Below the pieces are notes generated by a model. The model was not told where the DNA came from. It was given only the letters and a program-made list of their open reading frames with translations, and did no database searches. From Curvularia clavata (taxonomy: Eukaryota), in the NCBI GenBank assembly GCA_023920165.1, contig CP089278.1, positions 1,612,001 through 1,676,000 on the forward strand: a stretch of 64,000 nucleotides of DNA. Direction: 5' to 3'. Positions 30,022-36,993 of the stretch are shown here, piece after piece; within the stretch, counting starts at the first letter, position 1; the number at the start of each line of letters is the position of its first letter. A program made the translations under genes and the position numbers.

Positions 30022-33000
30022 ATGGGCAACCAATCCAGCACCCCCAACCCCAACAAGCTGTCCAAACCCAGGACCAACACAAACTCGGTGGCCCCAGCTT
30101 ACAAAGGCGACTCGTCAGAATCCCCCTCGACGGTAGATCTCAGTGACCAGGGACGGCAGCAGATCAGAGAGACGCTCCTATCCCTCCTCGCCGAGGAATT
30201 TGACCAGCACCCTCGCGTGCAAAAGAAGGAGAGTGCTCTTGACACGACTAGAACACGTGACGCGTCTCTGTCCGCTGCCTCGAGATCCCATTCAAGGTCA
30301 AATTCCAGGTCAAATTCGCGTTCCAATTCATTGTCATGCTTCGGTAGCAAACATGGCTCAACCGCTAGGCTTGCTGCCATGTCAGATTCCAAGTTGTCCT
30401 TGGTTTCCGGTTCACATGTAGATATTGCCGAGGCAATAAAGCTCCTACAGCAAGTCAAGAGGAATGCTTCTCCAGAGGACATTGCAGCCCTGCAGCAAGT
30501 TCTCGAGATGCCTGAAGAGTCACCAGAACCAGAAGCGGAGCCAAGCGCCACCTTAAGAACCTCGCCTGTAGACAAGTGCTCATCCTCGTCGCTTACACGG
30601 CGGCAGTCTCTAATCCAGACACCCGGAGTTGGCACCCGAAGCTCTCCTGTCGATGGGCGTCGAAGAACATGGAACTCGTGGAGGTCTCCGAGGCTTGAGC
30701 CTGATGAGGAGGCCAGGTGGCAGCCGAGCTCACGCATTGCTTCACAGCTCGGACTTCCTGAATCCCAGGCCTACCATAACACCAGTCACTTTGATTCAAG
30801 GCCGAGAGTGCCCTCTCCATCGGAGCTCGACTATTCGCATCTAGGGAGCCTAAAACCCGGCACATTGGTCGTCACCAATGGCCCTGCCTCTCCGGCATCG
30901 AGTATCCGGGGACCAAATCGCGCCCATGGAGAAAACGAGGACTATTTTTCAGAAGCAGAGCCCGGCACTAGCCCATTAATGATGAAAACGACACGACGTC
31001 GTGGACACAGAAGAAGCCAATCTGCCGTGCTTCCTGGAACATCTCTCTCTACTGTGGAAACCATGGGGCAGCACGTACCATATGAAACTGTCCGACGTGC
31101 TTCTACCGTGAAACTTGTTGAGCCCCCGGGCGAACCCCGTTCGACCCAATCAACTGCTCCATCCAATTATGTTGTGCAGGCAATGGGTAGCAACACACAT
31201 GCTCCAGCTGATTCTCCTTTGAACTTTCAGCTAAACGTCGTTCCTAGCACATCTCCAGAATCTGGAGAAGATCGTACAGTCAACAAGCATGGAAGCTTTA
31301 CATCTGACGATACCCACTATCCAAAGTCAGAAGATACTTCTACGTCACAAGAGCTAGTATTCACAAAGAATGTGGCAAAGGCTTCGCCGCCCCTCTCCTC
31401 AAGCACACCGGTAGAAGTGAGACCAAAAAGTCGGGCTAAGCAACGACCGCCTCCACAAACAACCGATTCCGGCTATTCTTCTGTTGGCAGCCTGCCGGTT
31501 GATGATCGAGAGCAGCACGCAGGTCCTCGTTCCGTTATTTGCTCCCAGTGCCAACACCATACCTCGCAGCGTCCCCAAGGCACAAACCATGACAACCAAG
31601 CCCTGCAGCAAGATCACATGGAGCAAAGTACAGAGAGAACGCAAATACCTGCGCCTATCGTGTCTACAGCACATGCTGTGCAGGGTCTTCACAATCGAAG
31701 AGCCCTAGTCCAGCCAGCGCTGGTAACCGTACAGCCCTCGCACCTCAACCGATCAAAGTCGCCTCTGCAGATCTCGGTGAATTCTGCAAGTTCGCCATCA
31801 GGGTCATCTACTCCAGAGACGTTACTCTCGCCCCAAACGCCTAGGTCGGTCTCTTCAAAATCGTCCTTCAACAGTACGTCCGGGAAGCCACCGAAGCGTC
31901 TTCACCGCAGACAACAGTCACAGGCAGAGGCCCTGGTTGTGCAATCGTGTCAGCCCATTCCAGAAGGAAAGATACCCGATGTTCCGGCCAACGTGCGGGC
32001 TAAGTTCGAAAGACGCGTGTCAAGTACGCCTGGCATGGACTGTTTGACCCAGACATATCCTTCAAAAGACCACGTTGTTGTAGACGAGTCGAGGCCGGAG
32101 GCCCCACTTCCTGGTCACACCGAGTTTCGACTGCTTGCTGAGCTGCAGGCTGTTCAGCAACCCCCAGTACCTACCCGCGTCCGCCGGAAAAGTCTCTCAT
32201 TTTTCCGGAGGAAGTCGATGAGTGACAAGAAAGCGGCCAAGGAAGAGACTGGACCTGTCGCACTTGAAGCTGAGTACATGGAACCCGTTGTAGTACCAAT
32301 TGGCGTTTCTCCATATGATGCCGTAACGTGCGATCTACCAACGCAGACTGTTCCTTTCCCGTCATACCCACACCAATTTGAGCCTCCCTATCCTCGTTCA
32401 AAGTCCATGGTCAATATGGATAGTAGGACTGCTGCTGAGTATGCGCACGCATATAGCAAAGAACTTGGTATGCCAGACCACGAATTCTCTCATCGGCGAC
32501 GTAAAAGCTTTCATAGCTTGAGTGCAGAGGCTGGCGAGGCCAGGGCCTTGAGACACCGCCCACAGAATGCAGATATCCCGCCTGTGCCATCAATCGACAT
32601 GGCAAAGCTTTCAGTGTCCTGTGCCGACATGCCTCAAGCCAGCAAAAGGTATTCCATTGGGCCACCTAGGCCAAACACTGCCCCTCGTCCTCAATCTCGT
32701 CAGCGTAGCCAAACCGTTTCTCAGGCTGAGAGCAGGAGCAGCGTGGGTATACAAAAAGCCTCACAGCAGAGCATGCAATGGGACGGGCACCCTGGCGCCA
32801 CGAGGCAGCGGCGCAAGACGATTGGAGAAGGCACACGCCCTCTGGATGCTGTTGTTGCGACTGGCAATAAGCGTGCTTCTATTGGCGCGGGAATGAAGGC
32901 TCCAGGGCCAGACAGCACTGGCACCTGGGGTCGGTACAGTGGTGGTTTGGCGTACGAGTATGGGGGTCGCAGCGTAGGCGTGGGAGGAAGCGCCGGTACG

Positions 33001-33099
33001 CGCCAGCTGAATAGCTGCGCATCGGTCAAGTCGCTCCACTATCAGCACCAGTATGGCGTAGACCTTTCCGATGTGCCCATCATTGTTCAGCGCGTATAG
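30022..33099 (+). CDS. Large Ser/Pro-rich fungal protein with N-myristoylation motif
   Basis: 1025-aa ORF starting MGNQSS. Mostly disordered, with short motif-like islands (DYSHLGSLKPGTLVVTNG, DSGYSS, C-terminal YGVDLSDVPI). Confidence 0.82.
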   Translation: MGNQSSTPNPNKLSKPRTNTNSVAPAYKGDSSESPSTVDLSDQGRQQIRETLLSLLAEEFDQHPRVQKKESALDTTRTRDASLSAASRSHSRSNSRSNSRSNSLSCFGSKHGSTARLAAMSDSKLSLVSGSHVDIAEAIKLLQQVKRNASPEDIAALQQVLEMPEESPEPEAEPSATLRTSPVDKCSSSSLTRRQSLIQTPGVGTRSSPVDGRRRTWNSWRSPRLEPDEEARWQPSSRIASQLGLPESQAYHNTSHFDSRPRVPSPSELDYSHLGSLKPGTLVVTNGPASPASSIRGPNRAHGENEDYFSEAEPGTSPLMMKTTRRRGHRRSQSAVLPGTSLSTVETMGQHVPYETVRRASTVKLVEPPGEPRSTQSTAPSNYVVQAMGSNTHAPADSPLNFQLNVVPSTSPESGEDRTVNKHGSFTSDDTHYPKSEDTSTSQELVFTKNVAKASPPLSSSTPVEVRPKSRAKQRPPPQTTDSGYSSVGSLPVDDREQHAGPRSVICSQCQHHTSQRPQGTNHDNQALQQDHMEQSTERTQIPAPIVSTAHAVQGLHNRRALVQPALVTVQPSHLNRSKSPLQISVNSASSPSGSSTPETLLSPQTPRSVSSKSSFNSTSGKPPKRLHRRQQSQAEALVVQSCQPIPEGKIPDVPANVRAKFERRVSSTPGMDCLTQTYPSKDHVVVDESRPEAPLPGHTEFRLLAELQAVQQPPVPTRVRRKSLSFFRRKSMSDKKAAKEETGPVALEAEYMEPVVVPIGVSPYDAVTCDLPTQTVPFPSYPHQFEPPYPRSKSMVNMDSRTAAEYAHAYSKELGMPDHEFSHRRRKSFHSLSAEAGEARALRHRPQNADIPPVPSIDMAKLSVSCADMPQASKRYSIGPPRPNTAPRPQSRQRSQTVSQAESRSSVGIQKASQQSMQWDGHPGATRQRRKTIGEGTRPLDAVVATGNKRASIGAGMKAPGPDSTGTWGRYSGGLAYEYGGRSVGVGGSAGTRQLNSCASVKSLHYQHQYGVDLSDVPIIVQRV

Positions 33100-33860
33100 G
33101 TCTTGGTGAGGCAAAATTGAACTTTAACGTGAGGTTTCTTTTCCTGGAGTTCATCTGGGGCGTTGGGTTACGATTGGCCAGCATTCGCATTCGACGCACA
33201 CAGCCTGCAGCACGCACGCATGCATGCAGAGCGATATTCTTTCGGTCTAGGAGGAGTTCTGGGTTCCTTGTTTTGGGTACATAGTTGGTGCTGCATGACG
33301 GTGGATGCAACGGCGGAATGGTCAATAAAATAGTAATAGCGGCTGCCCTGACACGGCGCAGATGGAACCACGCCCTGCTCACTTGGGCTCAAATGTACAA
33401 GTACCGTGCGCAGGCTGCGTGTGTGTCGATGCCCAAGATGCGCCTTTTTCTCGCCTGCGAACGGGTGCTCAGCCTCAGGTCGTTCGCATCGCTGCCAGCG
33501 CCGCTCATCAGCCAGTCAGGCACGGGTGGCAGGAGCGCACGGCCCCGGTGATGTCAGCAATGGCTGCTAGTGGCTGCGGATGCCGGGCGGCGCAGGGATG
33601 CTAGGTCGTCTTTGGCCCAAGACTCCAGCGACCACAGCCGAATGCGCGAAATTTCATCTCGACAGCTCCCCGCCATCGCCTCCCTTCCCTCCTACATCCA
33701 CCTCTGCTCTCCATTCACCGCCTCTTCAGACCTCGCTGCCTATCAAGCGACCGTGTCTGCCCTCTCGTTGCTGCCCATCTCCGCCCCTCGACAGCCTTTG
33801 GTCGCATCAAAGGCTCCCGTCCCACTACGGCCTCGGCCCTGATTCTGCTCAACCTTCAAG

Positions 33861-34094
33861 TTGTATCTGCTCGGCCAGCGCCTCACGTTTTCAACAACAT
33901 CCCCCCTCCCCGTCTTGTCGCCATCTAAGAAACAGCTCGAGCGTCTTCTTTTTTTGTCGCCTACCCAGACCCTCGACCAGCCTCAACTTCAGCTGCCGCA
34001 TAGGACGCCATCAGCGGTTCTTCCTCTTGTAGAGGAAGCGGCCAGACCTCGCCCAACACCAAGCCTCGGCTTCGCACCCTTCAAGCCTCCCTAA
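33861..34094 (+). promoter_or_regulatory. Non-AUG (UUG) upstream ORF of ODC, 77 codons, ending GFAPFKPP-stop
   Basis: TTG in strong context ACCTTCAAG-TTG; no ATG between about 33645 and 34166; ends in Pro-Pro-TAA 72 nt before the ODC ATG. Confidence 0.72.
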
Positions 34095-34166
34095 CGCGGC
34101 ACCACGCTCCACCAAGTAACCTGCACTAAAGCCATCCCTCAACTTCCACAAGCTACCACCAAGGGC

Positions 34167-35562
34167 ATGGCACCTTCTGCTGTCACGACTACCGAAGAAT
34201 ACCAATTTCCGTTGAAAGACAGTCCGTCCTTCAGCACCTATTCGTCTGGTAGTGTCGACAATCATGGCGCCTGGAAATCCAAGCAGCTGATTGGGGAGGC
34301 TCTCAAGAGCCGTGTCGAGGCTGTTGATTCTGATACCTGCAGTGTTGGCGACGAAGATGCCTTTTTCGTCGCTGACCTGGGCGAGGTCTACCGCCAGCAT
34401 ATGCGCTGGAAGAAGAACCTGAGCCGTGTTAAGCCACACTATGGTAAGCCGAACAACTAGAGACTATTGGCCATACTGGACTGCTGCTGACATATGCATA
34501 GCGGTCAAGTGTAACCCTGACCCCCAGGTCCTTCGTCTCATGACGGAGCTGGGCCTTGGCTTTGACTGCGCCTCCAAGAACGAGATTGAGACTGTCCTCA
34601 AGCTAGGCGTTGATCCCTCTCGCATCATCTATGCGCAGCCCTGCAAGACCAAGTCTTATGTGCGCTATGCTGCCCAGTCCGGCGTCAAGCAGATGACCTT
34701 TGACAATGCCGATGAGCTCTACAAGACCAAGCAGCTCTTCCCAGACGCTGAGCTATACTTGCGCATCTTGACCGATGACTCGGCTAGCCTGTGCCGTCTC
34801 AGCCAGAAGTTTGGCGCTTCTCTGGACACTACTGCTGAGCTCCTGGAGCTGGCAAAGAAGCTGGAGCTCAACGTTGTCGGCGTGGCCTTCCATGTCGGGT
34901 CCGGCGCATCCGACCCCAAGGCATTTATCAAGGCCGTCCAGGATGCCCGCTTCGTTTTTGACCAGGCTGGTGCCCTCGGATTCAACATGCACACACTTGA
35001 CGTTGGCGGCGGATTTACAGGCGATGTCACTTTCGAACCTATGGCTGCCGTCTTGTCAGCCGCTTTGGACGAGTACTTCCCGCCCCACATCCGCGTCATT
35101 GGAGAGCCAGGCCGCTACTACGTCTCCACCGCCTTCACCATTGCGTGCCACGTCATTGCTCGCCGCGCAGTCACTGACGCCACCCTCGGCACCACCTCTT
35201 ACATGTTGTACCTGAACGATGGTGTCTATGGAAACTTTTCGAGCATCATCTTCGACCACCAGCACCCTGTGCCACGTGTCTTGAAGAATGGCAGCAGCGT
35301 CATGTATGATGTTCGTCGCTCAGGCTATGATAGCCCTTCTCAGGTCGAGTACTCTATTTGGGGACCGACTTGCGATGGCATCGATGTCATCTCCTCTTCC
35401 TGCACCTTCCCTGAGCTGCTCGATGTTGGCGACTGGCTCTACTTCGAGGAGATGGGCGCATACACCAAGTGCTCTGCTACCCGCTTCAACGGCTTCAGCG
35501 ATAGCCATGAAGTTGTTTACGTCTGCAGCGAGCCCGGTGCTGCTGCCCTCATGGGCATGTAA
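34167..35562 (+). CDS. SPE1: Ornithine decarboxylase
   Basis: Intron 34444-34501 restores PHYAVKCN (PLP lysine); GFDCAS, FHVGSG, DVGGGF, EPGRY, WGPTCDGID, MGAYT, FNGF. Confidence 0.97.
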
Positions 35563-36993
35563 ATGTGAGGAGAAGGATGTTCCAGTTGAGTGTGTAAGAA
35601 GGAAGTGCGCAAATGTGAGAATGTTGTGTCTTTTTAAAAGTTTGATAGATTTCTAGATGTGTTAAGTTTGCTTTTGTCGTTAATGTAAGCTCTGTTCTCA
35701 GTGATTTTGTAGTGTCGCCGGTGCTGATACATGCTATGAAACATGTGTAGGCCGGGGTCGAATACCGTGTCGTCAAGATTCAATACGGTACACAAGTCAT
35801 GCGTAGACCCAGGACCGGGCAAGTTCCTTCTCGCTGTGTCGCCCAAGTTCCACTAGAAACCAAGACGACGAGGACGCTAGTGGGCTACACTAGTGCCCAA
35901 GTCTGTTTGCTATTGCGCCCCCACCACCCACCTACCCCATGTTTGTGCCGAGTAGCAAACCACAGTCTAAAACACTTCACTTGCACCTTTTACCACCTCA
36001 CTTTCACTTTTCACAAATGGACCCACGGTACTGCTCGGTATCGCGAAAAGGGCGTCTGTACACTTTTTTTTTTTACCTTTTCGACAAATAGACGCATACA
36101 CGCAATCTAAGCAACTTGATTGCACTGTATTGTCTCCTATTTGTCCTCTCTTTTTGTATTGCCTTGCCTCATCTAGTTTCTCGCAGGTCTACATCCCTCA
36201 AAAGCGACGTAAGTACAACCTCTTTTCTCCTCATGTTTCCCACGGGAAACCACCAGCAATGATGATACAACAGATACTGCGTAGTAGATAGCCTCCCTCG
36301 CTCTGTCCTTCGTTCTACCTAATAGATACGGGGATGAGGGTGGGGTGGTTATTGGTGTGCGATAAAAACATTGTCTGAGCTGGTTGACATGTTGTCTCAT
36401 CCTGTGTATCATGTTTGGCAGGCTTGCTGACCTTTTGTGACACAGATGTCAAGGTTTTCCTAGCCAGGGATACGCCAACTGAACAGTTGCATGCAAGCTA
36501 AGTTTCCATACGCTAAATGCGAGATTCTGTTGATATGGTAGGCTAGGGAAAAGAAAAAAGTTTTCAATAAATGGTTGACAGTAGTGCACTACCACTACTT
36601 GAAGAGAACTGTAGATCCGTGATACTAGCACCTTACTCGCCTCTGCGACTTGTGCCTGACGCCTATGCAGCTTTTCTCTAGACTGCTTTATCTGCTGTAG
36701 GTGAGAGTAGCTGCAGGATCGGCAGGCTAGTGGCTTTTGCTACACATAGGTAGTTTGTGATTTTGGATATCCGTTTCTTGATAGGCAGGCGCACAACAGT
36801 TGTCCTATTTCTGGGCCAAGGTCCTTACTCGAGATTACGATAGAAGTCGAATAGATCTATCATATTGCACTTGTAACCAGAGTCATATACACTGGCTATC
36901 AGTCTTCAAGAATCGTGCATGTCTTCAGATAGTATAACATTCATAGTACAAGCAAATGATCTTAATCTGCTCTACACCTCGCATCCACTACCC

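Follow-up and report, generated by a model that had tools for sequence, protein, structure and literature searches.

The ODC gene and its ATG-free leader

The window analyzed here is the whole of a 64,000-nt stretch of Curvularia clavata DNA (GCA_023920165.1, contig CP089278.1, positions 1,612,001–1,676,000 of the forward strand), and all coordinates refer to it. On its plus strand lies a gene for ornithine decarboxylase (ODC), the first enzyme of polyamine synthesis. The coding sequence (34167..35562) comprises exon 1 (34167–34443) and exon 2 (34502–35562), separated by a 58-nt GT..AG intron (34444–34501). The original prediction had placed ODC downstream of the leader, and this identity is borne out by the product, which carries both ODC-type domains (Pfam PF02784 and PF00278) and for which human ODC is the closest solved structure in a PDB comparison (E 1.7e-102). 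A long Ser/Pro-rich ORF (30022–33099, plus strand, 1025 aa) ends ∼550 nt 5′ of the ODC leader.

The stretch without ATG in front of the ODC start, first estimated at ∼520 nt, measures exactly 522 nt (33645–34166). It is flanked by an ATG at 33642–33644 upstream and by the ODC ATG at 34167 downstream, and 42% of it is C. The most prominent feature within it is an upstream open reading frame, here termed uORF-B (33861..34094, plus strand), the candidate upstream conserved coding region (uCC). Re-reading of the sequence reproduced each detail claimed for it: a TTG start at 33861 preceded by TTCAAG, 77 codons, and a C terminus SLGFAPFKPP followed by TAA (34092–34094). The frame is open for 83 codons from stop to stop, and its stop lies 72 nt 5′ of the ODC ATG. 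In the window, uORF-B is also in frame with that ATG, with no stop after its TAA (34095–34166), a relation that is not kept in relatives. Extension of the ODC N terminus by readthrough was considered and rejected: the gap between the uORF-B stop and the ODC ATG in relatives ranges from 39 to 143 nt and is mostly not a multiple of three.

Contigs from four public RNA runs were aligned to 32900–36100. The ODC intron has been removed in all four runs, so the contigs derive from spliced RNA. In three runs from three studies, ODC contigs start at 33654 (X9), 33682 (X10), and 33704 (X11, a metatranscriptome run) and end at 35656, 35633, and 35619, respectively, with no splice joint within the leader. 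Because these spliced contigs begin at 33654–33704, the whole of uORF-B lies inside the ODC mRNA, and a transcription start downstream of 33861 is contradicted. The ODC mRNA 5′ leader is accordingly drawn as 33654..34166 (plus strand), unspliced, with an approximate 5′ end, inside the stretch that is ATG-free from 33645. A separate X9 contig covers the end of the upstream gene and stops at 33352, and ∼33353–33653 is without cover in X9–X11, a weak hint at a transcription start but not proof; contigs of this kind cannot fix the transcription start, and they place at least 33654–34166 on the spliced ODC mRNA. The fourth, deep run yielded a single contig that extends from before 32900 across the gene of the Ser/Pro-rich ORF and ODC, and it is uninformative on the 5′ end.

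Dinucleotide shuffles of the 522-nt stretch (n = 2000) served as the chance control. No ATG occurred in 177 of the shuffled leaders, a stop-free run of at least 83 codons in 1916, and a PP-stop anywhere in 352. By itself, then, the uORF in the window is not beyond chance. Single-sequence statistics being weak, only the comparison with relatives makes it significant.

Conservation of uORF-B and its start codon

Metagenome contigs were scanned with ODC exon 2, which gave 80 loci at 64%–97% identity, and the region 5′ of the ODC ATG in these loci was searched for the frame by tblastn, with the uORF peptide as query. The frame was found at 73 of these loci. Six of the other seven (L001, L022, L061, L063, L068, and L075) have at most 113 nt or nothing upstream. 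The seventh, L026, holds a degenerate copy in which the QLPH and C-terminal parts lie in different frames, with no PP-stop and with ATGs in the leader. At L010, the uORF-B frame is interrupted and the leader contains ATGs. At L026 and L010, the element may have decayed, or the contigs may contain errors. Eight more loci run off their contigs and are incomplete; the 64 complete loci, together with the window, gave 53 unique sequences. Where leaders are not cut by a contig end, they are ATG-free over 345–944 nt.

The peptide conserved among these sequences reads ...QLPHRT..VLPLVEE..RPRP..LGFAPFKPP. Its last two codons are Pro-Pro in 53/53, the CC of each being invariant and the third positions variable (entropies of 1.56 and 1.34); TAA is the stop codon in 52/53 (TGA in L060). 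The predicted conservation of FAPFKPP-stop therefore extends through relatives whose ODC exon 2 identity is 64%–97%. As a measure of coding constraint, we used the fraction of single-base codon differences that are synonymous (the synonymous share). Over the last 10 aligned codons, this share, which counts sequence pairs that are not independent, is 0.66 in the uORF-B frame, compared with 0.11 in the +1 and 0.20 in the +2 frame, and the codon-level conservation anticipated for the C terminus was thus found. For the C-terminal part as a whole, the values are 0.50, 0.21, and 0.32, and for the middle segment 0.39, 0.22, and 0.20, in the same order of frames. Entropy by codon position is 0.80/0.96/1.52, and synonymous variation occurs at the PP, F/Y, K/R, G, and S codons. 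By this pattern of substitution, the C terminus of uORF-B, ending F/Y-K/R-P-P-TAA, is under purifying selection at the amino-acid level.

A HMMER search with the stop-to-stop peptide against 1.84 billion representatives gave 12 hits at E ≤ 1e-3, all of them unnamed ORF products, and in each the match extends to the last residue of query and hit alike. A word-based protein search with the uORF peptide gave two candidates, neither of which was scored. Pfam searches with the peptides of uORF-B and of the second frame described below returned no family.

The position of the TTG is conserved in a manner distinct from that of the C terminus. We examined its alignment column in 51 unique sequences; L030 and L067, which have a stop downstream of the column, lie outside this set. 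A near-cognate codon occupies the column in 48/51 (TTG in 28, ATC in 12, ATT in 4, CTG in 3, and ACG in 1), and A is found at −3 in 48/51, within the motif CAAR. The three exceptions, L023, L024, and L048, have poorly aligned N termini. The encoded residue thus shifts among L, I, and T while the near-cognate state stays, and this retention of the near-cognate property under a varying residue is the signature of a start codon. Five different codons thus occur at the near-cognate start of the original prediction, and it is the start, not the encoded amino acid, that is conserved. In-frame stops lie 4–6 codons 5′ of the column in 19/51 sequences and 3′ of it in 0/51. From the column to the stop, the uORF-B frame is open in 51/51, compared with 9/51 and 0/51 for the other two frames. 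Lengths in the relatives are 74–86 codons from the start column and 64–147 codons from stop to stop.

An alternative start at the conserved upstream TTG at 33798 was rejected. Among the 33 relatives having this TTG, it is closed or out of frame in 30, and only 3 keep the corresponding longer version (92–100 codons) open and in frame.

That uORF-B is a functionless chance ORF, as the weak single-sequence statistics would allow, is refuted by its recovery at 73 of 80 loci, with ODC identities as low as 64%, together with the constraint on start column and frame; we give this reading practically no credence.

A second frame, an invariant block, and two hairpins

The relatives also reveal a second frame, which went unnoticed in the original prediction. 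This frame, uORF-A (33827..33928, plus strand), starts at an ACG, comprises 33 codons followed by TAA (33926–33928), and overlaps the start of uORF-B in the +2 frame. Its conserved peptide, ...LQxVSxRPxx[D/H]I[L/F]N[N/D][I/L]PPP, ends in three prolines (33902–33910 in the window). The PPP is present in 47/53 unique sequences as CCN CCN CCN, with third-position entropies of 1.76–1.89. An in-frame ACG lies 24–26 codons 5′ of it in 46/47, with A at −3 in 42/46 and G at +4 in 46/46; the context is typically CA(A/C)(C/T)-ACG-GC(T/C), and that of ACG 33827 in the window is ideal. The frame from ACG to PPP is open in 46/46 sequences, and the other frames are open in 25 and 27. Spacing from the UUG position to the PPP is 41 nt in 45/47. 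The AUG-free ODC leader therefore carries two conserved, overlapping non-AUG frames, each with an invariant polyproline motif.

The out-of-frame PPP is absent from six of the 53 unique sequences (L023, L024, L030, L066, L067, and L048). In the first five, the conserved position does not hold a PPP, and the ACGGC motif is missing as well from four of them. In L048 (positions 158–427 of a metatranscriptome contig), the ACG, PPP, QLPHK, and FKPP-stop all lie in one frame of 89 codons, an arrangement not shared by the other 46 unique loci; the two frames may be truly fused in this variant, or the assembly may contain an indel.

Coding constraint passes from one frame to the other along the leader. 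In the overlap, which covers the first ∼15 codons of uORF-B, the synonymous share, again from non-independent pair counts, is 0.68 in the +2 (ACG/PPP) frame, compared with 0.24 in the uORF-B frame and 0.08 in the +1 frame. The claim that the 77-codon frame is coding thus holds for its middle and C-terminal parts, but over the first ∼15 codons the constraint belongs to the ACG/PPP frame. Beyond the PPP, the ACG frame is unconserved and runs on for 3–33 codons to any of the three stops. From the PPP to the QLPH block, eight different spacings occur (82–112 nt), all of them 1 mod 3, which is exactly the pattern expected from translation in the uORF-B frame across this stretch.

Such a switch invites a reading in terms of a single uCC that starts at ACG 33827, is read through ...NNIPPP, shifts by +1, and continues to FKPP-stop in the manner of antizyme, whose frameshifting is polyamine-stimulated. 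The change of constrained frame at the PPP, the lack of conservation and the variable stops of the ACG frame after it, and the single frame of L048, in which the PPP and QLPH..PP-stop are read together over 89 codons from the ACG, are all in keeping with a frameshift. The region lacks a conserved shift site, however: the third positions of the prolines are free, so that a slippery CCC-C pattern is not kept, and the sequence 3′ of the PPP is not conserved either. Moreover, a frameshift has no need of a near-cognate codon with A at −3, which is nonetheless found 41 nt 5′ of the PPP in 45/47 sequences, nor does it account for in-frame stops that occur shortly before this codon and never after it. 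We consider a frameshift quite improbable.

Part of the conservation in the leader appears to act on the RNA itself. The near-invariant block CAGCTGCCGCATAGGA (the CAGCUGCCGCAUAGG block; 33990..34005, plus strand) is 16 nt long and encodes the uORF-B codons Q L P H R, which read CAG CTG CCG CAT AGG (33990–34004). Nine of its positions are identical in 53/53 sequences and six more in at least 90%. Codon-position entropies are 0.13/0.21/0.09, and synonymous variation is absent. Judged from the alignment, coding constraint is therefore no explanation for the conservation of the block. We searched for a long-range pairing partner with RNAduplex; the best sites are scattered, and no site recurs at a fixed position. 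Within the block, CAGCTG resembles an E-box, and the ACG/PPP frame meets a TAG.

Two hairpins are predicted on either side of the block. Hairpin A (33793..33815, plus strand; AGCCUUUGGU cgc AUCAAAGGCU) lies 11 nt 5′ of the uORF-A ACG and has 10 bp, and the 39 nt around it fold with a minimum free energy (MFE) of −13.1 kcal/mol. Its stem, GCCUUUG(G)/(C)CAAAGGC, is predicted with variable loops in most relatives, with a median MFE of −10.8 and z < −2 in 23/45. L045 and L060 are without the conserved stem; a different complementary pair can be seen by eye in both, and the predicted fold is weak. The distance from hairpin A to the ACG varies among relatives by 30–35 nt and by non-multiples of three; the spacing is not kept modulo three, so hairpin A does not sit in a fixed reading frame and is not coding.

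Hairpin B (34020..34038, plus strand; CUUCCUCU ugu AGAGGAAG) lies inside uORF-B at the codons for (V)LPL.EE. Across the 53 sequences, 91.6% of its cells are paired, compared with 56%–68% when the partner is slid. Changes on both sides occur at only two pairs, and the shuffle control is not exceeded. RNAalifold recovers only three of the hairpin B pairs, and over the 3′ half of the uORF it predicts just five pairs, at −1.69 kcal/mol. On this evidence, the pairing potential of hairpin B is conserved, with thin covariation. The stem opposes pyrimidines to purines, and where a codon facing U has changed from E to G, a G.U pair is retained; changes of this kind suggest that the LPL.EE codons are constrained at the level of RNA. 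At QLPHR and LPL.EE, what looks like conservation of the uORF-B peptide may thus in part be of RNA-level origin. The peptide conservation of uORF-B accordingly stands at the C terminus, but at QLPHR and VLPL.EE it is in part conservation of nucleotides.

These features raise the question of whether the leader works entirely through RNA structure or a bound factor, its open frame being a by-product of C-rich composition. The near-invariance of the 16-nt block, third positions included, and the conserved stems of the two hairpins would fit such a reading, as would the long open frames seen in nearly all shuffled leaders (1916 of 2000). It is contradicted by the synonymous share, which is highest in the claimed frames, and by the synonymous variation at the PP, F/Y, K/R, G, and S codons. 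Indels come only in multiples of three, in eight spacing classes; the other two frames are closed in 42/51 and 51/51 sequences; and variation in the start column is confined to near-cognate codons. We regard an exclusively RNA-level function as very improbable. The RNA elements may well act in addition to the coding frames.

Proposed polyamine sensing by the ODC leader and known systems

In our view, uORF-B is likely to be a genuine uCC of the filamentous-ascomycete ODC mRNA that senses polyamines through its PP-stop, with a probable second sensor upstream. It lies inside the spliced mRNA and is kept open and in frame in relatives. A response to polyamines and eIF5A would be expected from its likeness to the uORFs of AZIN1 and HOL1. 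On this model, a minority of scanning ribosomes would initiate at UUG 33861 and translate the 77 codons. Termination on Pro-Pro-stop would be slow, requiring eIF5A and being inhibited by high polyamines. The stalled ribosome would then block the scanning ribosomes behind it and queue them back to the weak start, raising initiation at the uORF. High polyamines would in this way lower ODC synthesis, forming a loop that acts directly on ODC. By analogy with those systems, such stalling at the PP-stop, with ODC as its direct target, is the most likely reading of uORF-B.

A constitutive brake or trigger of nonsense-mediated decay (NMD), translated and conserved yet blind to polyamines and eIF5A, would agree with the evidence at hand, which is of translation-type constraint only. 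However, an invariant Pro-Pro before an almost invariant TAA and a second invariant motif, PPP, are both eIF5A-dependent motifs, and the mRNA that carries them encodes the first enzyme of polyamine synthesis. The same logic has been demonstrated experimentally for AZIN1 and HOL1, as retold in the available text of two later papers (PMC10855120, PMC11550727). A polyamine-blind role for uORF-B is therefore, to our minds, unlikely.

The place of uORF-A in the stalling model is less settled. Its PPP is likewise an eIF5A-dependent motif, and uORF-A is probably a second sensor in front of uORF-B. Two more speculative options concern how it might act. It could be a first sensor, in which a stall at the PPP would feed ribosomes into the UUG frame, or it could offer a by-pass over the UUG when eIF5A is active, as in the plant AdoMetDC pair. 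By a rough estimate of geometry rather than a computation, a ribosome stalled on the PPP would have its trailing edge ∼32 nt after the UUG. On that estimate, the 41-nt spacing between UUG and PPP does not fit a 40S subunit on the UUG abutting a PPP-stalled ribosome.

Taken further, and only tentatively, the ODC leader of filamentous ascomycetes could be a two-tier polyamine sensor built from two overlapping non-AUG uORFs in different frames, the UUG of the longer one lying within the ACG frame, 41 nt ahead of the PPP. With eIF5A active, ribosomes translating uORF-A would pass the UUG, terminate, and be able to reinitiate at ODC. With high polyamines, a stall at the PPP would direct more ribosomes into the repressive PP-stop frame. 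The 16-nt RNA block and the two hairpins would contribute control at the RNA level.

Metabolite sensing by the ribosome itself has a textbook example in the translational control of ODC by non-AUG uORFs. The window adds a fungal instance that is well supported, both by RNA evidence for its leader and by 52 unique relatives. The comparison also shows that, besides the one frame that is usually cited, the fungal ODC leader contains the ACG/PPP frame, the block, and the two hairpins. If not already described, these would provide mutable targets for studying how eIF5A-dependent stalling is coupled to start-codon choice.

uORF-B itself is of a known kind, the published uCC, as the original prediction correctly recognized; this instance is new. 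Ivanov, Loughran, and Atkins reportedly described the uCC of ODC homologs in Pezizomycotina in PNAS in 2008. Our literature searches, whose reach did not include that primary paper, found no experiment on a fungal ODC uCC and nothing on the overlapping ACG/PPP frame, the invariant block, or the hairpins. The two-frame architecture may be absent from the literature.

The class of non-AUG uORFs in fungal ODC leaders to which uORF-B had been assigned is indeed on record. The accessible portion of a review (PMC2811004) places uCCs in the ODC leaders of Pezizomycota, mostly without AUG and with UUG and ACG as putative starts. Nearly all have two adjacent prolines near the C terminus, toward which conservation is concentrated; the groups of uCCs arose independently, and in this portion AZIN1's is the only start codon described as experimentally verified. 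uORF-B matches the fungal uCC, as excerpted there, in its position in the ODC mRNA leader (here from Pfam and PDB matches and RNA contigs), in the lack of AUG and a near-cognate start in good context (48/51 here), and in amino-acid-level conservation at the C terminus with adjacent prolines, which are the last codons in 53/53 sequences here. It differs in length, with about 100 codons given for Pezizomycota and 77 from the UUG, or 83 from stop to stop, here. The longer figure may refer to the version starting at TTG 33798.

Polyamine-responsive uORFs outside this group offer further comparisons. The AZIN1 uCC starts at AUU and carries PPW..PS-stop, and the S. cerevisiae HOL1 uORF reads MLLLPS-stop; in the available text of both papers, polyamines inhibit eIF5A-dependent peptide bond formation or termination at such proline motifs, for HOL1 the termination step (PMC10855120, PMC11550727). 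For AZIN1, it is proposed there that the stalled ribosome queues scanning ribosomes and thereby represses the main ORF. The mammalian AZIN1 uCC and uORF-B, as far as these texts describe the former, are alike in a weak non-AUG start and an eIF5A-type proline motif. They share no sequence similarity, and the motif in AZIN1 is an internal PPW, whereas here it is a PP at the stop, with a PPP in the second frame. HOL1 shares with uORF-B proline-containing last codons immediately before the stop; as reported there, however, it has six codons in front of a transporter gene, in contrast to 77 codons, a non-AUG start, and ODC in our case.

For the pair of frames, a parallel is provided by the tiny and small uORFs of plant AdoMetDC. 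As outlined in the accessible portion of the review (PMC2811004), these overlap and start with AUG, the downstream one is a sequence-dependent repressor, and the choice of start between them sets the output of the main ORF. Both leaders thus present two overlapping uORFs in different frames on an mRNA of the polyamine pathway. In contrast to the plant pair as described in that portion, both starts in the ODC leader are non-AUG, and the upstream frame encodes a conserved PPP peptide.
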